From Octopus vulgaris (taxonomy: Eukaryota): a stretch of DNA of 64,000 nt. The position numbers were made by a program, and so were the translations under genes. The notes beneath the pieces were generated by a model, which worked only from the letters and a program-made list of their open reading frames with translations, ran no database searches and had not been told where the DNA came from. Shown here one piece after another: positions 2,466-61,904 of the stretch; the first letter of the stretch is position 1, and every line of letters begins with the position of its first letter. Where the stretch lies: the NCBI GenBank assembly GCA_951406725.2, contig OX597837.1, forward strand, positions 8,680,001-8,744,000, written 5' to 3'.

Positions 2466-2528
2466 CTAGATGTCGAGTTGGCAGAACAGTTGGCATCCCG
2501 GGCAAAAGAAAATTGCTTTGCCATATTT
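2466..2528 (+). mobile_element. 5' head of a tRNA-derived SINE (Meta-domain-like family), separated from its body at 2991
   Basis: gatgtcgagttggcagaacagttggcatcccgggcaaaa...tgctttgccatattt matches the head of the copy at 21319 (ggcggcgagctggcagaaacgtgagcacgccgggcgaaat). Confidence 0.65.
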
Positions 2529-2990: not shown

Positions 2991-3160
2991 GGTATTTCGT
3001 CTGTCTTTACTTTCTGAGTTCAAATTCCACGGAGATTGACTTTGCCTTTCCAGCTTTGGAGGTCGATAAATCAAGTACCAGTTGCGTACAGGGGTCGATC
3101 TAATTGACTGGCCCCTTCCCCCAAAATGTTAGGCCTTGTGCCTAGATTAGAAAAGAATGT
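2991..3160 (+). mobile_element. Body and tail of a Meta-domain-like SINE
   Basis: ggtatttcgtc...ttctgagttcaaattcc (B-box-like)...gactttgcctttc...gtcgataaatcaagtaccag...cttgtgcctagattagaaaagaat; matches 21728-21897 and 44004-44157. Confidence 0.85.
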
Positions 3161-3767
3161 TTAGTTCTTGTTTAATTTTTATCAACTCTAATAGAAGCAC
3201 TTTATGTCGATAAATTTCCATCGAGATCATCACCTCTCATTTTAAAATCGTATTCAGTGAATATATAATCAAAACTTCCTTCAAAATCGTGAACACCTCA
3301 TCTTCCTTGCATACCTATTTGTACATACTCCTGCAATATATACCACTGGCTCTTCTATACGGCCCTTGGTCTGAACAGCCACCTCGGAAACGGGTACCCA
3401 TCGCACCCGTCAGACTAATGAGGCTCGATCACTCGCTACAGGTTAACTACTCAAATACGAATTAAAGCTGACGACGAATGAACTGTATTTGATGGATGAG
3501 ATAAGAGACACTTGGGTATATCAGACGCACCCCAGTTTCAGTAATGCATATTCAGGGAAATGATTTTTGCGCATTAATGATTTTGGGAGGTCCAAATTAG
3601 AGGACCGGAGTGATTTATTTTGTAATTTTCTTGCAAAAGTAAGGGAATCTTACGAGCCATCAAATACGACGTTCCTTTGTTCCTAAGACTTCAAGATATA
3701 ATTTTAAGAACGCTAGGTAGCTATTTCTAGCCGGCCTAGAAGCAAACCTATGTTCTATATCTATTGT

Positions 3768-17081: not shown

Positions 17082-17950
17082 GGAGAGAGAGAGGGAGAGA
17101 GAGATAAATAGATAGATAGATATACATACATACATGAACCTATGTGGGTGTACGTGTATACTCACATGACCACAAAGTTTCACATTAGCACACACACACG
17201 CATACATACACACACACACATAAGCACATATAACTAAACAACCAGAAAAAATCTATATTTAGACGGGAATCTATATATGCAAATGATTATCGACGTAGTA
17301 AGTTCTCATAATTTGCATAAGTGTGTACCTACGCCTTTCAATAAACGAATGAATGGAAGAATATGTGTGCGCACGAATGTGAGCGTGAGAGACAACGCCA
17401 GGGAAGAAAGAGACTGTGAGAGCCTGCGTTCATTACCTTTGTTTTACGTCTCTCACAATATATCATTAATTCATTGACAACAGTTTTATTCAATACAAGT
17501 GCGCCTAACATTTCAATAGTTACTGTTTACTGAATGTTCTCTGCTACTACTTTCAGTGTAATTCATTGATATATATATATATATTAATTTACCCGTGTGT
17601 TTGAGAAATGGCTGCGATTGTTTTGGTGTATCACTCCGCCATTTTAATCAACCAGTTTCTTGAGAACTATTTGGATACAAAAACATTACCACGTGGGTGT
17701 AAGAATACGTAGAAACACAATTGTACATATATTCATTTAAACATTTATATATGTGAAAATAGAGAATGTGGACAGCTTCAGAGAATGAGTTAAGCTCAAA
17801 ATATATAGCCTTATATTAATGTATGTGCCTACGTATACGAACACCCCACAAACACACACACACACACGTATCTATCTATCTGTCTATCTATCTATCTGTC
17901 TATCTGTCTATCTATCTATCTGTCTATCTGTCTATCTATCTATCTATATA

Positions 17951-18546
17951 CTTGTGGCTATGGCGAAAGAATGTATCTGGTGGACGCGCATGAAAGGATT
18001 AGAGACAAACACTTTCCTCTCTCGTCAATCTCTCATCAACTTCTCCAAGTATCACTTGAGGAGGAAAGTGAGAGTAGAGAGGCAAGTTTTGTCTAGTGAA
18101 TGTTTTAAAAAAAGATGGGTGAATGTAGCAAGGATGACACGTATGAATGACAAAGCCACCTTGGCTATGATTCTATGAACCATAAATTAATACAGAGAGT
18201 TGCTTATTTGCAAAAAAAAAAAAAAAATAAAAGAAAGAAATATAACATGTGACTTCATTGACCGAGGTTACCGTGGTCTTTTCCGTAGGCTTTTCTTTCC
18301 ACGGGTAAACCTCACCTGTCCTCCCCTTTACACTTCATATTGACATTTCTGTGATAACGATCCCAATTGATCAATTTTTTTCCTCTCCTTTTTTTTTAAC
18401 CCCCCCCCTTTTTTTGTCCTCTTTCTCTCCTTTTACGATCCCTTTTGATCGAACACCCCCCCCTTTTTTTTTACTTTCAAAAGAAAAGCTCTACCTTGTA
18501 ATTTGTTCTATCTGTGTGCAGCCCTGTGTGGCTAATAAAGAAACAT
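17951..18546 (+). mobile_element. 5'-truncated Tx1/L1-clade LINE inserted in (TATC)n
   Basis: Open frame LVAMAKECIWWTRMKGLETNTFLSRQSLINFSKYHLRRKVRVERQVLSSECFKKRWVNVARM...* (stop 18176-18178), AK..IW..R...F...W pattern of Tx1 ORF2 ends; 3' UTR ends ctAATAAAgaaacatatct; TATC arrays on both sides. Confidence 0.75.
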
Positions 18547-18555
18547 ATCTATCTG

Positions 18556-19420: not shown

Positions 19421-19536
19421 ATGTTTGTGTGTCTGTGTTTGTCTCCCCAACATCGCTTGACAACCGATGCTGGTGTGTTTACGTCCCTGTAACTTAGCGG
19501 TTCGGCAAGAGAGACTGATAGAATAAGTACTAGGCT
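19199..19536 (+). mobile_element. CORE-type SINE, truncated at both ends, with internal (TA)n(TG)n
   Basis: tagcttgcctaccaaccacatggttccgggttcagtcccactgcgtggcatctagggcaac...gatagaataagtactaggct; flanked by ~43-bp direct repeats. Confidence 0.9.
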
Positions 19537-20342: not shown

Positions 20343-21065
20343 GGGTGTTGACGTTAATGACTAGTCCCTCCTCCAAAATTTCTGCCTATAATAGAAAGGA
20401 TTATAACTTGAAATAATACATAGATTTATTACATGTGCATTCTAAAACTATATGCCTTATAATGTATTTTAGCAAACTGTTACCGGTTATGAATGAGCAA
20501 TCAACGTATGTGCATAAAAATACGTAAACAATTGTTGAGAGGCTAATAGTTTTGAAGGCAATATTGCAACCGAGAAAAAATGTAGCTATGCAACGTATTT
20601 CTGGTTATTATATGCTTCCATAGTGTCATCTTTCTTATGAAAGTGTTATTGCATTATTTCCTCCGATTAAACTTCAAATGACAGCAGGCAGGTGGTCGAC
20701 TACCTTCACATGGCAAACATAAATATTCAGTTAAAATACCAGAATTCATAAAATACGCCAACCAACTAACCAGCCAACCAACCAACCGACCAACTATAGT
20801 CAACTATCTAGCTTTCCCCTCTCTCTCTCTCTCCCTCACCATCCCGCGCTCTCTCTCACTCACACACGCATGCACAGATATATATATACATATATACATA
20901 AGAAATGTATAAAGGACAATTGGACAATTACTTGTATAATGAGATTCATTAGCTGTTTTTGCATATGCAGTAATAGCTGAGTCGTAGCTTAGAAAACGAA
21001 AGTGCAATAGTATTTGGGAATGCCTTTATATATATCTAGCGTCAATATCTATCTATCTATCTTTC

Positions 21066-21234
21066 TTTCTTTTTCCCCTTTTACGATCCCTTTTGATCGA
21101 AAACCTACGCCACTTTTTTTTGTTTCTTCTGTTTTTTTGTTTTTTTTTGTTTGTTTTTTTCATCCCACAAAAGAAAAGCTCTACCTTGTAATTTGTCACA
21201 TCTGTGTGCAGCCTTGTGTGGCCAATAAAGAAAC
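21066..21234 (+). mobile_element. 3' UTR fragment of the same Tx1-like LINE as 17951-18546
   Basis: ccttttacgatcccttttgatcgaa...aaagaaaagctctaccttgtaatttgt...gtgtggccaataaagaaac nearly identical to 18429-18544; TATC on both sides. Confidence 0.85.
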
Positions 21235-21241
21235 TTATCTG

Positions 21242-21318
<77 letters not shown>

Positions 21319-21897
21319 AAGGCGGCGAGCTGGCAGAAACGTGAGCACGCCGGGCGAAATACTTACCGGTATTTCGTCTGCAGCTACGTTCTGAATTCAA
21401 ATTCCGCCGAGGTCGACTTTGCCTTTCATCCTTTCGGGGTCGATAAACTAAGCACCAGTTACGCATTGGGGTCGATATAATCGACTTACTCCGTTTGGCT
21501 GTCCTTGTTTGTCCTCTCTGTGTTTAGACCCTTGTAGGTAGTAAAGAAATAGGTATTTCTTTAAGTTCTGAGTTCAAATTCCGCTGAGGTCGACTTTGCC
21601 TTTCATCTTTTCGGGTTCGATAAATTTTTACCAGTTACGCCCTGGGGTCGATATAATTGACTCAGTTCGTTTGTCTGTCCTTGTTTGTCCTCTCTGTGTT
21701 TAGCCGCTTGTGGGTAGTAAAGAAATAGGTTTTTCTTCTATCTTTAGGTTCTGAGTTTAAATTTCCCCGAGGTTGACTTTGCCTTTTATCCTTTCGGAGT
21801 CGATAAATGAAGTACCAGTCGAGTTGTGGGATCGATGTAATCGGCTAGCACACCCTCTCCAAAAATTTCGGTTCTTGTGCCTACAGTAGAAAAGAAT
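21319..21897 (+). mobile_element. Meta-domain-like SINE with three tandem body units
   Basis: Head 21319-21367; units start at ggtatttc/ggtttttc (21368, 21552, 21728); units 1-2 end gtagtaaagaaata, unit 3 ends with the standard tail gtgcctacagtagaaaagaat. Confidence 0.9.
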
Positions 21898-21914
21898 ATC
21901 TATCTATATATAGT

Positions 21915-22375
21915 TTACCTTTTTTGTGCTTCAGTCATTTGGCTGCGGCCATACTGGAGCACCGCCTTTAGTCGAACAAATCGACCCCAGGACTTATTCT
22001 TTATAAGCCTAGTATTCTATCGATCTCTTTTACCGAGCTGCTAAGTTACGGGGACGTAATCACACCAACATTGGCTGTCAAGCGATGTTCGGGGGACAAA
22101 CTCACACACACGCACACGTCGAAGCAGCGACGTCAAATGGTGGGCGCCAATCTGCTGTGCCGAATCGTCTCCTGCCCATGGGGTGATAAATTATATCTAC
22201 TATCCTGTACGCCAAATGCTCTGTTCGACAGGCTTCCGCTCATTTTCCACCTAGAAATACACAACTTACAAGCTTTTTGTCATCGTGAAGCTAGATTAGA
22301 AGAAAAACCGTGTTTGCCGTGAAGATAGATCGAACACGAATCCACTCTGTAGAGAAGTGGAATTCGGAACCATGA
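21915..22375 (-). mobile_element. CORE-type SINE (good 3' half 21915-22110, diverged 5' half)
   Basis: ttcagtcatttggctgcggccatactggagcaccgcctttagtcg...gctaagttacggggacgtaa matches the family. Confidence 0.75.
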
Positions 22376-23785: not shown

Positions 23786-25042
23786 CGAGGGGCGTTCAAT
23801 AAGTAGTGCTCCTGACCCACTTGCAGTTGTTTGATCTAGCTGAAATTTTGCATGTGCACTTATTTATACCTCTATAGATTAAGTGGCGAATTACAACTCT
23901 GAACTAATTGTGGTTTCTGATTTACAGGTGTTTGAACTGAGTCAAGTGTGAAATGGAGCCTGTTGAGTGTCGAGCAGTGATCTGGTTTTTGTATTTGAAA
24001 GGACGCACACCACGGGAGGCTTTTGATGCAATAAAAGTAACTTATGGTGATGATGCCCAATCATATGACCTTGTAAAACGCTGGCATTGTGAATTCAAAC
24101 ATAGACGGAACTCTGTGGAAACAGCTCCCAGATCTGGTCGCCCACTTCTGCCGTTGATGAGACGTCTGTCCGTCAAGTTGAGGCTGCCATTTTGGAAGGT
24201 CAACGCATAACTATTCGCCAAATAGCCCATAAGGTCAAGATTAGTACCGGGTCTGTGGAAACTATCATTCATGACCATTTGCATATGCAAAAGGTGTCTG
24301 CCAGATGGATTTCCAGGTTGCTCACACCTTTCCAGAAGCAAGAACGCGTTGAGTGCTCGAGGATGAATTTGGAGATGTGCCAAGAAGATGAGTCAAAATT
24401 TTTCAAAAGACTGATCACACAGGATAAAACCTGGGTCCATCACTATGATCCATAGACCAAAGCCCAGTCAATGCAGTGAAAGCACCGTGACTCACCTCCT
24501 CCAAAGAAGGCAAGGGTGCAGCCCTCCGCTGACAAGGTTATGCTCACAGTCTTCTGGGACCAGGACGGAGTAGTGATGACAGATTTCCTGGCAAAGGGTA
24601 CCACAATTACAGGAGCCTATTATGCTTCACTTTTGAGGAAATTAAGAGAAGCTATCAAAATCAAGAGGCGGGGCAAGATCAGCAAAGGCATCCTCCTCCT
24701 GCAGGACAACGCTCCGATCCACAACTCGCGTGTCGCCAGGCGTGCAGCTATGAACTCCTCTCCTTGCACCCTCTGATTTTCACCTCTTCCCAGCCATGAA
24801 GTTGATTTTGAAAGGAAAGCGTTTCCCAGATGATGCAGCCTTGATTTCTGAAGTCACGTCGTGGCTGGAGGACCAAGCTGGGGTCTTCTACAAAAACGGT
24901 CTCCAGAGCTGTATCAAACGAGGGGAGAAATGCATAACTCTGGGTAGTTCCTATGTAGGAAAAGACTAATAACTGTGCCAAGTGTCGTTGCTCTACTGCT
25001 ATGGGAAGTGGGTCAGGGGTATTACTTATTGAACGCCCCTCG
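23786..25042 (+). mobile_element. Mariner (Tc1/mariner DD34D, irritans/Hsmar2-like) transposon, 1257 bp, defective
   Basis: TIRs cgaggggcgttcaataagta.../...tacttattgaacgcccctcg, TA TSD at 23784-85 and 25043-44. Confidence 0.97.
23953..24969 (+). pseudogene. Mariner transposase pseudogene
   Basis: MEPVECRAVI...RSGRP, WISRLLT, ITQDKTWVHHYDP, LLQDNAPIH, LAPSDFHLF; frameshift after SGRP, in-frame stops, and deletions of 13 and 21 bp removing the YSPD motif. Confidence 0.95.
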
Positions 25043-25049
25043 TATATAT

Positions 25050-25404
25050 AAGTTCAGCAAACAATTTAGATTCAAATGAATATGGTACTTAATTTAGATG
25101 CACCAGAATTTTTCATGGTATTACCCATAAAATATGCGGGGTGATTATAATCAAAAATAGGCTACAAGAATGGATCCGGTAATTTAGTACAATTGTTTCA
25201 TACTATAACATTTTATTAAAGCTGTAAATATTACAGCAGATTTAATATGCAGAGTAATCTTCAGCTAATTTTATATAGGTTTTCTAATAATATAAAGTTC
25301 TCAAATCAATTAGTAACATCCTAGAATAAAGCTGTAGATATGAATTTCAAGAACATGAAGTAGGATGCCAAACAGACCAAAATTAAGTTCACAACTAAAT
25401 ATAT

Positions 25405-25469: not shown

Positions 25470-25912
25470 ACCATATTTGATATCGATACCACCATAGAAA
25501 CCATCAAGCAAAAGTCATGTGCTAACAGTACCTGCATAGCAAGGTAAGAAAAGCGCGTTAGATTCTTCAAGGACAACAACATGTTCAAAAATAACACAAG
25601 AAATTTCTACAGGAATATACGGAAAATACCAGTTACATTAAAGTGTGTCCCATCAAAAGAAAAATTGCAGGAATTTTGGAATAAGGTTTGGGCAGATGAC
25701 ACAATGAAAAGGCCCTTTGGATTGCTACCTGTCATGACTTACAGTTTCAATATCATTAACTGGTCCATTACTGAAATATGTAACCTTGACAGAAAAATAC
25801 GAAAATTATTGACAATGCATAGACATAGAACGACTTTATCTGCCAAGGAAAGAAGGTGGCCGTGGCCTTTTTACAACTGGAATTAACAATGACACCTTTC
25901 TCAAAAGCTCTG
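25465..25912 (+). pseudogene. Dong/R4-like retrotransposon ORF fragment (part 2), RT core deleted
   Basis: IETIKQK...AR*EKRVRFFKDNNMFKNNTRNFYRNI...PSKEKLQEFWNKVW...HNEKALWI joined to the post-RT segment LPVMTYSFNIINWSITEICNLDRKIRKLLTMH...IERLYLPRKEGGRGL. Confidence 0.85.
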
Positions 25913-43877: not shown

Positions 43878-44003
43878 GTGTGTGTGAGTGTGTGTACGTA
43901 TTATCTTTCAATCAGAAAAGAATGAACGCCAAAGATGAGCACAATGAAAGTTCAACCTGCTGCGGGGTACGTCTACACCAGTAATGCAATATTTTCTGTT
44001 CGA

Positions 44004-44157
44004 AAGGCAGCGAGCTGCGAATTCCGCCGAGGTCGACATTCCCTTTCATCATTTGGCGGTTGATAATTCAAGTACCATTTGCATACAGGGGTCGATCTAA
44101 TCGACTAGGCCCCTCCCCCAAAATTTCGGACCTCGTGCCTAAAATAGAAAAGATTAT
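44004..44157 (+). mobile_element. Meta-domain-like SINE with internal deletion
   Basis: aaggcagcgagctg joined to aattccgccgaggtcgac...aagtacca...gtgcctaaaatagaaaagattat. Confidence 0.85.
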
Positions 44158-44166
44158 TCTCTGTTC

Positions 44167-44598
44167 GGATCTTTTCGGTTTGAACGGCAGTTTTTTATAT
44201 AATTTCTAGGTAACTAAAAAATTTTAAACTTCGTATACTAGTAGAATGTGTTTATAAAACAACTTTTCTCTTGGCTTTATTGAGAAAATTCTATAGTTTG
44301 TAAGATATTTGTTGTTTTTTTCTTCAATTTCTGCAATTTCAACCAATCAATGACTGTCTATTGAGGTGAAAACAATCTGTGCCGTATGAATATGTCCCTC
44401 GTTTAAGAAACAGATTGGGTTTATTTACATTTCTGAAGAAAAAAAAATACCCTTCCACCACCCCTAACCCTAACCCTAACTCTAACCCTAACCCTAAAAT
44501 AGATTGAAATGCAATAGATCGATACTAGGGTCATAATTATGAGTGACAATTTCATATGACACCGCTAGGAAAAACTGGCGTTCAAACAGAAAAGATCC
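44167..44598. mobile_element. 432-bp MITE with 28-bp TIRs and 8-bp TSD (Merlin-like or hAT-like)
   Basis: TIRs ggatcttttcggtttgaacggcagtttt / aaaactggcgttcaaacagaaaagatcc (2 mismatches); TSD ctctgttc at 44159-66 and 44599-606. Confidence 0.9.
44462..44497. repeat. Interstitial telomeric repeat (CCCTAA)6 inside the MITE
   Basis: Five CCCTAA and one CTCTAA. Confidence 0.9.
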
Positions 44599-46055: not shown

Positions 46056-47779
46056 TCTGCCTTTCTTTTCATATGGATACTTGAATTAGTTCTCTGCTTA
46101 TATTTCCGCATACAACAACAGAAGAACCGCTACGAAACAGTGAGACCTAGAACAATAAAAGAACAACAGTTGCAACACCAATATCAACAATACTTACGAC
46201 AATAACACGTCACACATACGTACACACCCACACACAAAAAAAGATTTAAAAAAAACAGAAAATAATAATATTGTACAAATTGAATTGTAAAAGTTCCCTT
46301 CAATTTTCTATATCTTTCAAATTGCTATTTATTAACCCTTATTCAATATTTATTTGAATTTCTTAAACGGTGAATTCGATATTGCATAAAACTTCGTGTC
46401 ATTCATCATTAATATTTTTCTCTTTACTTAATATATTGTTCCACGTTGTGTAACTTAGAAAACTTTGGTGGTTTTGTTGGGCTTCAATTATTTTATTTTC
46501 TTTCTTTTTTTTTTTGATCGTATTAAATTTTTTGAATTGTTTTATTTTGTTCCAAAAATGGTATTTACGAATTACATGAACAGAATAAATATTGTATGAA
46601 TAGGCAAATGAAATATGAAGACAGTGGTTGATTGTCAGAATTATTTGTGTTTCGGATAAAATGTCTCACGGTAATTATGCATTTGTTTCCAGTTCATAAC
46701 ATTCTGGGTTCAAATCCTGTCGAAGTCAAACAAGTAGACAGTCCAGAAGAGTTGCAGGAGATTCCGAAGTTGTATGGAGGCCGTGGTTGAAGCCAATGGT
46801 GAGTTTATTGAATAGATTTACTCTTTACTCTTTATTTTTAACGTAATTTTAGTAAATATATCTTTTAAAATGTGATGTCAGTGTCATTTTCATTTTTGCG
46901 TAATTTAGACGGCAGTTCACTCACTGCACCCAGTATGTATGTATGTATGTACGTATGTATGTATGTATGTATGCATGTATGTATGTATCTATGTATGTAT
47001 GTATGTATGTATGTATGTATGTATGTATGTATGTATGTATGTATGCCTGTATGTATGTATGTATGTATGTATGTATGCATGCATATATGTATGTATGTAT
47101 GTATGAATGTAAGCATGAATGATTGTATGTATGTATGCATGCATGTATGTATGTAAGCATGTGTGTAGATATGTAGGTATGTATGTTTGTATGTATGTTT
47201 GCATGCATGCATGCATGTATGCATGTATGTATATATGTATGCACGTATGTATGTATGTATGTATGCCTGTATGTATGTACGTATGTATATATGTATGCAC
47301 GTATGTATGTATGTATACATGTATGTATGTATGTATGTATGTATGTATGCCTGTATGTATGTAGCTATGTATGTATGTATGCATGCATGTATGTATGTAG
47401 GTAGGTATGTATGTATGCATGTATGTGTGTATGTATGCATGTATGTATGCATGTATGCATGTATGTATGTATGTATGTATGTATGCATGTATGTATGCAT
47501 GTATGCATGTATGCATGTATGTATGTATGCATGTATGTATGCATGTATGTTTGTATGTATGTATGCATGCATGCATGTATGTATGTACGTATGTAATCAT
47601 GTATGTAGATATGAAGGTATGTATGTTTGTAAGTATGTATGTATGCATGTATGCATGTATGTATGCATGCATATATGTATGTATGTATGAATGTAAGCAT
47701 GTATGTATGCATGTATGTATACATGTATGTTTGCATGCATGTATGTATGTATGTAAGCATGTGTGTAGATATGTAGGTA

Positions 47780-49070
47780 CCAGGGACGTTTAATAAGTAA
47801 TGCCTCTGACCCACTTGCAGTTGTTTGATCTAGCTGAAAATTTGCATGTGCAATTATTTATATCTCTATAGAGTAAGTGGCAAATTACAGCTCTGAACTA
47901 ATTGTGGTGTCTGATTTACAGGTGTTTGAACCGAGTCAAGTGTGAAATGGAGCCTGTTGAGTGTCGAACAGTGATCTGGTTTTTGTATTTGAAATGACGC
48001 ACACCACGGGAGACTTTTGATGAAATGAAAGTAACTTATGGTGATGATGCCCCATCATATGACCTTGTAAAACGCTGGCATCGTGAATTCAAACATGGTC
48101 GGAACTCTGTGGAAACAGTTCCCAGATCTGGTCGCCCCCTTCTGCCATTGATGAGGCATCTGTCCGTCAAGTTGAGGCTGCCATTTTGGAAGATCGACGC
48201 ATAATTATTCGCCAAATAGCCCATGAGGTCAAGATTAGTACCGGATCTGTGGAAGCTATCATTCATGACCATTCGCATATGCAAAAGGTGTCTGCCAGAT
48301 GGATTCCCAGGTTGCTCACGCCTTTCCAGAAGCAAGAACGCGTCGAGTGCTCGAGGGTGAATTTGGAGATGTGGCAAGAAGATGAGTCAAAATTTTTCAA
48401 AAGACTGATTACAAAGGATGAAACCTGGGTCCATCACGATGATCCAGAGACCAAAGCCCAGTCAATGCAGTGAAAGCACCGTGACTCACCTCCTCCAAAG
48501 AAGGCAAGGGTGCAGCCTTCCGCTGACAAGGTTATGCTCACAGTCTTCTGGGACCAGGACGGAGTAGTGATGACAGATTTCCTGGCAAAGGGTACCACAT
48601 TTGCAGGAGCCTATTATGCTTCACTTTTGAGGAAATTAAGAGAAGTTATCAAAATCAAGAGGCGGGGCAAGATCAGCAAATGCATCCTCCTCCTGCAGGA
48701 CAACGCTCCGGTCCACAACTCGCTTGTCGCCAGATCAGAAGCACAGGCGTATGGCTATGAACTCCTCCCCATCTCCCCTACTTTCCTGACCTTGCACCCT
48801 CTGATTTTCACCTCTTCCCAATCATGAAGTTGTTTTTGAAAGGAAAGTGTTTCCCAGATGATGCAGCCTTGATTTCTGAAGTCACGTTGAGGTTGGAGGA
48901 CCAAGCTGGGTTCTTCTACAAAAACGGTCTCCAGAGCCGCATCAAACGATGGGAGAAATGCGTAACTCTGGGTGGTTCCTATGTAGAAAAATACTAATAA
49001 CTGTGCCAAGTTTCGTTGCTCAACTGCTATGGGAAGTGGGTCAGGGCCATTAGTGATTGAACGCCCCTCG
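47780..49070 (+). mobile_element. Mariner transposon, 1291 bp, defective, same family as 23786-25042
   Basis: TIRs ccagggacgtttaataagtaatg.../...cattagtgattgaacgcccctcg, TA TSD at 47778-79 and 49071-72. Confidence 0.97.
47947..48997 (+). pseudogene. Mariner transposase pseudogene
   Basis: WIPRLLT, ITKDETWVH, LLQDNAPVH, PYFPDLAPSDFHLF, RWEKCVTLGGSYVEKY*; stops and two frameshifts. Confidence 0.95.
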
Positions 49071-49160
49071 TAGGTATGTTTGTATGTATGTATGCATGCA
49101 TGCATGCATGTATGTATGCATGTATGTATGTATGTATGTATGTATGTACGTGTATGTATG

Positions 49161-49193
<33 letters not shown>

Positions 49194-49469
49194 GTATATA
49201 AAGAGATAGAGGCATAGACATATATTATGATTGTGGCCCGACAAAGAACTAATTTCTACAATAAATTTTATAATCTTTTTTGCTATAAACGTATTGCATT
49301 TCCATTGAGTTAGGGGAAAGCTTCGTTTAAATCAACCGTACTAAAGGTGATTGGTTACCCCAAAAACATTGTAGAAAGTACAAGTAGAAGATTGATACTT
49401 AAATTGAAGCTAGGTTCGTAAGAATAGGAATTCGTAAGAACACAAGCTCGCATACAAATATCTCATCAT

Positions 49470-53599: not shown

Positions 53600-53777
53600 C
53601 CATGATAGACCGTTAGTCACTACACACATTTCTGTCTCTCCTTGTTTCTTTCTGTGGAAGAGCGTAGGCTCAAAACGTAAAAGACTTTTTTCTATTCCTG
53701 AGCGTTATACTAATACAACTGGTTGTTTTGTACAGCATCTGTCTTCGTCTTTTGTTTTTTTCGTAAACTCTCCCTAT
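53598..53777 (+). mobile_element. TA-flanked Penelope-like repeat
   Basis: tttCTGTGGAagagcgtaggctcAAAACGTAaaagac...; matches the copies at 37397 and 63186. Confidence 0.8.
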
Positions 53778-57018: not shown

Positions 57019-57873
57019 GTGAAAGGAAAAATGGGGGACAAAAAACTTTGAGGACAATGAATGCGCTGGAATTAAACGCGTTAAAACATAATAGCACTAC
57101 TTGAAATTACAATGAATATGAAAGAACGTTAAATACAACAACAACAACAACGAAAACAATAATGATGTTGATAATAATGATGATGATGTTGATGGTGAAG
57201 TTGATGCATAAATACTGAAAGTGAAACGGTAAGTATCAAAATTTTATGAAATAAAAATGTAGTTAACAATAAGAATAAGCGTTATCGTATATAGGTTTGT
57301 ACCTATAGACACAAATACACGCACTAGTTTATCGACTTAAGATAGATGAGGTTCATAAAAAGTTTAAAATGTCGGCTGAAAATGGAAGTATTTCCGTTGA
57401 AAGATTCTACTTGAAACAGTTTCTTGCCGAGAGAAATTTTGATTTGAAATTATTAGCACTAAAAAAACTGTAGATTTTATATGATGAATGATATGGCGCA
57501 AATATATACTTCTCTGTTTATTTATTTAAGTACTTATTTAATTAATTAATTTATTTATTTATTTATTTATTTATTCCTTTCTAACAACGGTAGAACACGA
57601 GACAAAAGAATTCTGTTATTCGCTTTTAAATGCAGGTGTGTAATTCCGGCAACGAAAAAACAGATAGCACTTTGAAACACGTATGTGTAATTTGAAAAAA
57701 ACAGAAATAAAGAATAGAGGAAAAATCAGGAAAGAGAATGGTTTGAAAGCATTGTAACTATTTCTTTAGATTATTTGTAGAATTAAAATACAAATTTTGT
57801 TGCGTTAGACGAGATCCTTCTTTGCCGATAAAAAGAAAGTTTACGACAAATTACAGTCCAATAATATAACCAA

Positions 57874-58301
57874 ATGCAGATTGGTGAATGCAATTGTCTT
57901 CCAAATAGCAACATATGGATGCGAGACCTGGACACTAAAGAAAGCTGACCAGAAGAGAATTAATGCATTCGAGCTTTGGTGTTGGAGAAGACTTTTACGG
58001 ATTCCATGGACAGCGAGGCTCACCAATGGAGAAGTTCTTAAGCAGATCAGGCCGAAAATGTCGCTAGAAGGTAGGATCACTAAGCATAGATTGGCATATT
58101 TTGGTCATATTATGCGGAGAAAATCCCTGGAGAAGGACATTATGCTCGGAATGGTCAGTGGCAAGAGAGGAAGAGGCCGACAAAGAACACGCTGGCTTGA
58201 CACCATCAAGAGTGATACGGGAATGGACATAGCCAATCTGAAAGAAGCGGCCCAGGATAGAACTTACTCTGACTAGAGGACACTGATCTAACGATAGATA
58301 G
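57874..58301 (+). mobile_element. 5'-truncated RTE-clade (BovB-like) LINE with 11-bp TSD
   Basis: RLVNAIVFQIATYGCETWTLKKADQKRINAFELWCWRRLLRIPWTAR...YFGHIMRR.SLEKDIMLGMVSGKRGRGRQRTRWLD; gatagatag tail; TSD aatataaccaa at 57863-73 and 58302-12. Confidence 0.92.
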
Positions 58302-60684: not shown

Positions 60685-61075
60685 AGTAGTCTTATCTTTT
60701 ACAGGTACTTTGACTACACTACAGAACGCAGATCTGTGTAATTTGAGTATGTGCAGTGGTTTGTTCTGGTGCTCTTATTTTCACTGTATTGAAAGTGCTT
60801 TAGGTAGGATGTGTGCGGATGTCTAGTAGTGCTACATTTTGTATGTTGTATATATTTGTCAGTCCTGATGACAATGTTATATATTGTCAGATGTCTGAAT
60901 ATCTGTTTTATCATAACTAACGCACCTACTATGATGGGAATTAATTCTGTTTTTAGGTTCCACGTTCGAGTTACCTCTATTTCCATAGCTTTATATTTTG
61001 AAAATTTTTCCGTTCCTCTCAGAGAAACATTGTCATCTGTTGATCTTGATAAATCGATTAGAAAGCGTTCTTTAC
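60684..61075 (-). mobile_element. Dong/R4-like LINE 3' end (RLE endonuclease remnant plus 3' UTR)
   Basis: FLIDLSRSTDDNVSLRGTEKFSKYKAMEIEVTRTWNLKTELIPIIVGALVMI fits the +ID...D.N....EK..KY..L....W....+P+++GALG motif. Confidence 0.85.
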
Positions 61076-61904
61076 TTGGTGATGCCCGGAAGCATAGATA
61101 CCTTCGCTCCAAAAGCAAAAAAAAAAAAAACAATATGCGATTTTCGATATGTGTGTTTGTGAAAAAATGTCTCCTATTTTGCACTTATTCAAAGTGGGAC
61201 TCACTTTTAATTCAGGAGGTTTACCCTTGGCTTTCTAGGAAGAATATACTTTAAGTTGGATCATCATCTTTTGGAGGTGCTGGTAAAATTATTCTAAAGA
61301 AACTTTTGTAAATATTCTTAACAGCATATAGATTTTAGGTTCTTTCTATTGAAAAAAAAAAAACGTTCTTTAGGATTCCTTAAAAAAAAACAGAATTCTT
61401 CTTCAATAGGGAGCTTTTAAATTTGCTATTAACCTATTGGAATTGAAGATTCTTATCGTTCTAAAACGTTCTGTCGAAAAGTGCATTATGTCTTTAATTG
61501 CTGTAGGATTTTTCTTCGATTAAAGAGCAAAATTTACATTCGCCATTATTTTGCAAGTGTGACCCTGAAAAATAAAAAGAGAGAAAAAAACAAGGAAGTA
61601 ACGCCAGCAAAAAATAGCAAAAATGAAACAAAAAATGAAAGGAAAAAAGAACGATACGCCCATCTTCTAAGTCTTTGTAGAAAACCAGCAGTTGTCTCTA
61701 TAAAGTGTAACAAATAAGGCATTTTAGATGGTATGGAAATTTAAGCGAAAATAGTTTCATCTGCTTTTTTTTCAATGACATTCCATATTTGTACTCCATC
61801 TTATACAGTTATACACGTATACAGTTATACATACACATACATACACAAGCACACACACACATATACACATGTATACACACATACATGTATAAATACATAC
61901 AAGC

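Follow-up and report, generated by a model that had tools for sequence, protein, structure and literature searches.

An Arrayed Octopus SINE with LINE-Type Tails That Probably Inserts into the Promoter of Its Own Family

Introduction

At positions 21319-21897 of a 64,000-nucleotide stretch of Octopus vulgaris DNA (contig OX597837.1; hereafter the window, 32% GC and microsatellite-rich), one SINE head is followed by three SINE bodies, and the locus raises the question of how such an element comes to be stacked upon itself. A preliminary description of the window proposed that a SINE subfamily took over the 3' tail of the LINE that targets this very SINE and now inserts into its own relatives. 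Target-specific SINEs have seldom been published, and in the one close case the target is another element. Our analysis indicates that the array is real, that its tailed form is abundant, and that it is probably self-targeting.

Results

Anatomy of the Array

Sequence comparison places the head, a tRNA-like promoter region with an A-box match at 21331-21341, at 21319-21367 (+), and bodies begin at 21368, 21552, and 21728, which bears out the proposed count of one head and three bodies. Homologous heads lie at 23360-23326 (-), 58979-58934 (-), 26287-26236 (-), and 2474-2528 (+). The head starts inside a TATC microsatellite (21236-21318, unstranded; from sequence and TRF), and a few TATC-like letters reappear downstream of unit 3. 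Directly behind the head stands GGTATTTC (21368-21375, +; located by motif and fold), which forms the 3' arm of a hairpin predicted for the head. The fold of 21319-21420 has z = -2.47, with 4 of 200 shuffles equally good, and this signal is absent in the 23 kb copy of the head region (z = 0.50).

Unit 1 (21368-21551, +) comprises a linker, a mutated B box (21395), the body, a subfamily-specific 3' body, and a LINE-type tail at 21505-21550. Unit 2 (21552-21727, +) begins with GGTATTTC and a short linker, followed by a B-box match at 21572, the body, and again a LINE-type tail. In unit 3 (21728-21897, +) the site reads GGTTTTTC, and the body ends in the ordinary tail, as had been described; this tail matches 3105-3162 and 44102-44160 (0 of 2000 shuffles as good in each comparison). 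Unit 3 is likely the remainder of the host SINE. Units 1 and 2 are 88% identical over 166 letters, unit 3 is 78-80% identical to either over ∼100 letters of body, and TRF reports 21388-21819 as 2.4 copies with a period of 176. The distance from GGTATTTC to the B box is 20 letters in unit 2, 7 short of the usual 27; the linker of unit 2 is close to the ordinary type, that of unit 1 is unlike it. Within the 64-kb window, a majority-unit query recovers 7 family bodies, and a unit 3 query adds one piece.

Both tail-to-site junctions (21543-21559 and 21719-21735, +) read GAAATA-GG-TATTTC, a short inverted repeat, and the unit 1 site pairs similarly with the head. The family copy at 44003-44157 (+) is without ∼65 letters from the head start to the B box, so that its A box and target site are missing. 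The LINE-type tails themselves have no stable fold (z from -1.5 to +1.2 in five sequences).

Three LINE Ends in the Window

Two of the three LINE ends in the window lie in TATC repeats (ending at 18543 and 21233) and one lies at the SINE site (2990). The last belongs to a 5'-truncated L1-group LINE (2641-2990, +) whose broken ORF2 C-terminus is 50% identical over 38 aa to the protein P0085 and is interrupted by a stop; its tail, 2942-2989, adjoins GGTATTTC of a SINE body. The LINE at 17948-18543 (+) is likewise 5'-truncated and of the L1 group, stands between TATC repeats, and consists of an ORF2 C-terminus (17948-18175) and a 3' end with the tail. At 21055-21233 (+; start approximate), the 3' untranslated end of a second L1-group LINE family is followed by TATC repeats and is 92% identical over 73 letters to 18478-18550. 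The elements at 17948-18543 and 21055-21233 (+), two 3' ends of one L1-group family, make that family a candidate for targeting TATC/GATA microsatellites, like Kibi and Koshi with another target.

The LINE end at 2990 sits inside a further copy of the SINE family. A degenerate head (2474-2528, +; local alignment to 21319-21376, 0 of 2000 shuffles) is followed by a 5' portion of a different repeat, which by eye looks like a SINE (2535-2640, +; 72% over 89 letters to 29043-28962), by the LINE, and then by the rest of the LINE-holding copy with GGTATTTC, body, and ordinary tail (2991-3158, +). The repeat piece at 2535-2640 is joined directly to the truncated LINE, possibly by a template switch during insertion. 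We estimate post hoc that the chance of one in three LINE ends falling at the SINE site is ∼1 in 5000, taking ∼8 family copies and 128,000 positions over both strands.

Origin of the SINE Tail

Units 1 and 2 had been said to end like the LINE at 2942-2989, and the alignments agree, with 36 of 48 and 37 of 48 columns matching and none of 2000 dinucleotide shuffles as good. When the SINE tails are compared with all three LINE ends, 0 of 2000 shuffles do as well in five of the six pairs and 3 of 2000 in the sixth; LINE-type tails compared with ordinary tails give no match (54 to 708 of 2000 shuffles as good, six pairs). Judged by this likeness, the SINE tail is LINE-derived, as in SINEs of the stringent type.

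The choice of donor is another matter. Local tail scores are 38 and 43 for the TATC-flanked LINE at 18.5 kb and 32 and 37 for the LINE at 2942-2989, and the unit 2 tail matches 18478-18544 in 40 of 51 columns. The TATC-flanked LINE is also ahead in ungapped alignment (35/47 vs 30/47 for the LINE at the SINE site), and gapped alignment gives 35/47 vs 37/49, both comparisons being between single decayed copies. Because the TATC-flanked LINE scores as well or better, the 2942-2989 LINE is no more than one candidate donor. Of the claim that the SINE took the tail of the LINE targeting it, the LINE-derived tail stands.

Five homologous tails occur in the window, three adjoining the SINE site (two SINE units and one LINE) and two adjoining TATC repeats. 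Exact GGTATTTC sites number four, two behind a LINE-type tail and two behind a head. Matches to AATAAAGAA at 57706, 40312, and 15840, which by eye are without an upstream tail, were excluded from the five. Weak tail-like matches at 34727-34699 and 53633-53656 and a B-box-like match at 46699-46727 were rejected as solitary copies, their ends being unlike the tail, and a fourth weak match (19423-19443) lies inside a TRF microsatellite.

The Candidate Partner LINE Family

Searched against 1.84 billion proteins, the frame at 17948-18175 (P0001) yields 81 relatives with E values of 0.001 or less. Its best long relative, P0003 (67%), shares a cluster with the 1111-aa P0085, which carries endonuclease, RT, and zf-RVT domains (PF03372, PF00078, and PF13966) and whose best solved relative is L1 ORF2p (E 1e-50; R2, 4e-22). 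By protein likeness traced through these relatives, the window itself holding C-terminal ends only, the partner LINEs belong to the L1 group. Among the close relatives of the protein family, the only named one is a protein of Argonauta hians (64% to P0003); there is also a short match to a protein of Octopus bimaculoides. A Tx1 label is plausible from the fixed targets in repeats; named Tx1 references number 0 among 45 protein matches. Against the preference by which such targets are defined, >20% of flanks in one repeat type (PMC4494074), the window offers three LINE ends, two in TATC repeats and one at the SINE site, a sample too small for a verdict. ZCCHC3-like domains, which may be a Tx1 mark, are present on the relative P0115, and a literature search on this mark returned no paper. 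The 76-aa ORF2 end gave no match in a word-index protein search or in Pfam, and its Atlas matches were all <0.9. A search for loci of the ORF2 relatives found none. Frames at 57809-58276 (+), 25548-25886 (+), and 60714-61184 (-) look by eye like decayed retrotransposon proteins, with no Pfam match above cut-off.

Position of the Site in the Promoter

The A- and B-box patterns used here are the consensus motifs of the Pol III internal promoter. The family has both boxes, is short and non-coding, and occurs in many dispersed copies, as expected of a tRNA-derived SINE. ARAGORN found no tRNA gene in the head and Rfam no match at gathering scores, thresholds that decayed heads often miss. The absence of an Rfam match also gives no sign of a U1/U2 snRNA-derived head; the head is of the A/B-box kind instead. 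No likeness to BivaMeta-SINE1 is seen by eye (supplement part 1 of PMC4824008).

Counted from GGTATTTC, the A box starts 37 letters upstream and the B-box position follows 27 letters downstream. A headless unit entering there would hence bring its own B box to the family spacing. The preliminary description had held that insertion between the boxes would rebuild a promoter with the host head. The site is indeed between the boxes, but the head need not be the host's, as the joints from a tail to a new head indicate (see below). The majority-letter unit contains no run of four T, and Pol III could therefore read through successive units. Here, the A-box match at 21331 is accompanied by a single intact B-box match in the array, that of unit 2 at 21572; at 21395 the majority letter would give unit 1 an intact B box. 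Unit 2 contains T4 and T5 runs. With the unit 1 B box mutated, the only intact one in unit 2, and these T runs, the locus is probably a dead product and not a source.

Local Duplication and Unit Ages

Local tandem duplication is one of the alternatives that the preliminary description had set against its own reading. Against the majority letters over 167 columns, units 1 and 2 carry 6 and 12 private differences, with 2 columns differing both ways and none shared (departures at 8/167 and 14/167, respectively; majority letters known from the best 40 of 179 variant rows). The contrast of 0 shared with 20 unshared differences argues against local duplication of an aged copy at this locus, the neighbors having no derived change in common. 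Duplication soon after insertion would likewise leave 0 shared differences. Unit 3 shows at least 12 majority differences among the best 40 of 179 rows. The differences (at least 12, 14, and 8) fit an age order of unit 3, 2, 1; we rejected this order as evidence, the numbers being too small and not comparable.

Abundance and Junctions in Sequencing Runs

Contigs from 4 of 24 runs (X1 and X4 from organism A, X5 from B, and X14 from E) were aligned to 21315-21930 at 80% likeness, and 224,822 to 381,808 contigs matched per run. Summed depth is no copy number, and ratios were used for this reason. Depth in the tail bins (21525-21545 and 21693-21713) relative to the body bins (21420-21440, 21588-21608, and 21777-21797) amounts to 43% in X1, 27% in X4, 38% in X5, and 4% in X14. 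The tailed form is thus a large subfamily in organisms A and B; in E it is less common or has diverged further. The subfamily has its own 3' body letters (bins 21462-21503); ordinary copies break off there, with loose ends behind 21460. A rough floor for X1 is some 30,000 tailed units, from a depth of 60 million at a single tail position, divided by the 31 words that overlap there and by a single-copy depth near 58. In X14 the relative depth of the tailed subfamily is ∼1/10 of that in organisms A and B, and the majority letter at 21520 is that of the LINE at 2.9 kb. The X14 state is possibly older and would then precede a lineage-specific burst.

A check proposed with the preliminary description was whether tailed units are nearly always followed by GGTATTTC. 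At 21731, where unit 3 has T, A makes up 95%, 97%, 95%, and 100% of the depth in the four runs, restoring GGTATTTC, and 21736 is mostly G, continuing the SINE linker. The depth at 21731 in X1, X4, and X5 (3.79, 2.91, and 2.79 million) falls to 0.30, 0.42, and 0.51 million nine letters on; from this 5- to 13-fold drop by 21740 we conclude that the depth at 21731 comes from the tail side. In X14, 0.11 million at 21731 is close to 0.08 million at 21740 and gives no direction.

We simulated 31-letter words from tails with or without the site continuation under eight aligner and divergence settings. At 21536 the simulated ratio is 0.03-0.06 when no tails continue into the site and 0.20-0.29 when all do; the observed values are 0.22, 0.32, 0.21, and 0.18. 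At 21731 the corresponding ranges are ≤0.006 and 0.06-0.33, with observed values of 0.09, 0.17, 0.10, and 0.10. The 21731 marker varies with aligner settings and permits a share as low as ∼1/4, and the steadier 21536 marker has half or more of the tails followed by the site in all eight settings. The share of tails running into GGTATTTC accordingly lies between about a quarter and all, which is a bracket from a crude simulation and not a measurement. The junction is thus common in all four runs, and "nearly always" becomes a range from 1/4 to all. Indirectly, the share exceeds the >20% flanked copies that mark a target-specific SINE, a figure that cannot separate targeting from co-amplification.

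Joints that lead from tail and site back to a body occur in at least 16, 11, 6, and 1 contigs in X1, X4, X5, and X14, and joints from a tail to a new head in at least 16, 14, and 19 contigs in X1, X4, and X5, with none among the joints listed in X14 (all from the best 15 of 3070 joints). The latter imply that headed copies also lie at or just behind the site. Two joint rows in X5 place the new head 14-16 letters behind the site start, the pattern expected of full-length insertion with a short duplication. A 5543-letter contig of low depth (36.7) contains body, tail, and GGTATT. Ordinary tails are also followed by heads (joint 21899 to 21318; at least 32, 20, 28, and 39 contigs), so ordinary copies form head-to-tail tandems too. 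The missing loose ends at the end of the tail were rejected as evidence, the left end of the head, at which there must be unrelated flanks, being equally absent among the best 24 of 3431 rows.

In pattern scans, the tail motif was found in 0 stretches of metagenome contigs, and the body motif in 0 genome contigs and 0 viral contigs. One metagenome contig, L001, contains the body motif with other flanks and another tail; its positions 1501-1540 repeat a 23-letter SINE core, likely a domain shared with SINEs of another animal.

Discussion

How the Array May Have Formed

The reading that we judge moderately probable is that the tailed SINE subfamily is moved by an L1/Tx1 LINE with a specific target site and enters its own family between the A and B boxes. 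The LINE enzyme, site-specific and probably of Tx1 type, would place the SINE at GGTATTTC; with every such event the array would gain a unit and the site would be regenerated. We envisage that Pol III transcribes head, body, and tail and, in units that contain no T4, can continue into the next unit. The ORF2 protein would then bind the tail, nick GGTATTTC of any family member, and copy the RNA in place. The head of the new copy could be resolved against the identical head upstream, or 5' truncation could remove it. The result would be a headless unit, joined without a seam, with its own B box spaced normally from the resident A box. If head resolution fails, a headed copy behind a short site duplication would be expected. 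At this locus, unit 3 would be the old host remainder, and units 2 and 1 later arrivals upstream of it.

A more ambitious version of the same idea is a SINE that feeds itself. The LINE would cut the SINE's own Pol III promoter, insertions would restore both the cut site and the A-B spacing, and read-through RNAs would carry the target behind the tail, so that arrays would grow by retrotransposition alone into a satellite-like repeat formed without DNA-level duplication, its units numbering in the tens of thousands in certain octopod lineages. This we offer tentatively, as a possibility that we think somewhat less apt to be right than wrong.

Several observations tell against self-targeting of either kind. 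Use of the site by a LINE is supported by one old copy in the window, and there is no clear target-site duplication: agreement between the flanks of unit 1 is limited to 8 letters, and between those at 2.5-3.0 kb to 5 of 8. The commonness of the junction, moreover, is also predicted if one founding insertion produced a dimeric or multimeric SINE that was then copied whole by the partner LINE of the ordinary tail, with no repeated targeting. Such an origin, which we hold to be unlikely, would account for the single head, for the ordinary tail standing last, and for a junction share near one; it agrees with a majority-letter unit without a T4 stop, and SINE dimers have precedents (PMC10702118). 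Had the last unit been co-amplified, however, its depth should match that of the inner ones, and in X1 the tail bins of unit 3 reach 0.04-0.23 million against 9-53 million for the LINE-type tail bins, an argument that is weakened by the poor alignment of ordinary tails in general to unit 3. The LINE end at the same site (2990) and the tail-to-head joints would also go unexplained.

Junctions would also be common if the founding insertion had been followed by multiplication of the 176-184-letter unit through unequal exchange or slippage, giving long arrays and short dispersed ones. Satellite units are often 150-180 letters long, and a minor form in squamates has both SINE ends with tandem units between them (PMC10702118). 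Summed depth cannot separate few long arrays from many short ones, early duplication leaves no shared differences, and shared changes could hide beyond the best 40 of 179 rows. We nevertheless consider a SINE-derived satellite improbable, given the 0 shared against 20 unshared differences between neighbors, the linker of unit 2 that is ordinary-like when that of unit 1 is not, and a unit boundary that falls exactly at the LINE 3' end, where a LINE proper ends at the same site. Very unlikely, in our estimate, is a loose preference, by which a tailed subfamily with its own head enters many kinds of site and a minority of copies land in relatives. The tail-to-head joints do reveal headed copies, the 21731 marker permits a share near 1/4 in some settings, the tail is equally close to the TATC-flanked LINE, and SINEU-1 and SINEU-2 have 23% and 13% of copies in their target (PMC4494074). 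On the other side, the 21536 marker gives half or more in 8 of 8 settings, and both tailed SINE units in the window adjoin the site.

Comparison with Known Systems

By analogy, the closest known system appears to be the SINEU families of crocodilians, SINEU-3 above all, with the LINE Tx1-Mar. SINEU-3 is Tx1-mobilized and site-specific and forms tandems by sequential insertion (Kojima 2015, PMC4494074), with 313 of 347 near-full copies flanking Mariner-N4_AMi (PMC4494074). As read here, the octopus SINE would, like SINEU, share its target with a site-specific LINE and form tandem copies around a duplicated site; for SINEU, the tandems are explained by sequential insertion and transcription from the target is proposed (PMC4494074). 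In R2, site-specific integration can become stronger when the element is co-transcribed with its target (Kojima 2015, PMC4494074). The SINEU target is another element, the DNA transposon Mariner-N4_AMi, whereas that of the octopus SINE would be its own family, between the A and B boxes. SINEU elements, as described in the cited parts of that work, have U1/U2 heads, oligo-T, and no Pol III promoter, in contrast to the tRNA-like head of the octopus SINE, which for want of an snRNA head is not a SINEU, and they are linked to Tx1-Mar by common target and heads, the octopus SINE to its LINE by a common 3' tail.

Site-specific Tx1-clade LINEs include Tx1 in Tx1D, Keno in U2 genes, and Kibi and Koshi in TC and TTC microsatellites (PMC4494074). 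The window LINEs, which may belong to this clade, would resemble them as endonuclease-RT LINEs with fixed targets in repeats: in the window, one family occurs in TATC repeats, and a further end lies in a SINE. The sections of the paper drawn on here name no SINE target for the clade (PMC4494074). R2 and R2/R1 SIDEs occupy 28S genes (Eickbush and Eickbush 2012, PMC3414825). A SIDE, like the octopus SINE as read here, is a short non-autonomous element that uses a LINE 3' end and inherits its target site, and it depends on the target for transcription (PMC3414825). SIDEs differ in being internally deleted LINEs with a ribozyme in the rRNA gene. Unlike the octopus element, they do not belong to the Pol III SINEs, and in the cited account their own promoter is not regenerated. 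SINE-derived satellites of squamates share the tandem SINE units, the SINE ends on the outside, and a similar unit length (Vassetzky et al. 2023, PMC10702118), but they are explained by DNA-level duplication, and the excerpted text describes no LINE tail at the unit boundary (PMC10702118).

Among octopus elements, the tRNA-derived SINEs OR1 and OR2 were reportedly described by Ohshima and Okada in 1994. They are likely from the same animal group and of the same element class as the present family, and they are cited elsewhere as CORE-SINEs (PMC4824008, PMC4758252). Our literature search, which covered mostly titles and the beginnings of abstracts, found no account of a SINE aimed at the promoter of its own family, or of the tailed octopus subfamily; the family may already be named in Repbase or SINEBase and its target noted there.

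Significance and Side Observations

If self-targeting is right, a change of tail is enough to give a SINE a new target that does no harm and renews itself, the promoter of its own family, and retrotransposition would be tied directly to the growth of tandem arrays. SINEs make up 11.6% of the O. vulgaris assembly (PMC13282606), and 893 of 900 recently active SINE families are unclassified (PMC13282606); the tailed subfamily could thus explain part of the SINE expansion. The many natural insertions would be usable to map the cut sites of a site-specific L1-group endonuclease.

Elsewhere in the window, 24042-25053 and 48036-49255 are two related copies with frames that by eye resemble mariner-type transposases, and six CCCTAA telomere-type units lie at 44462-44497 within another repeat.
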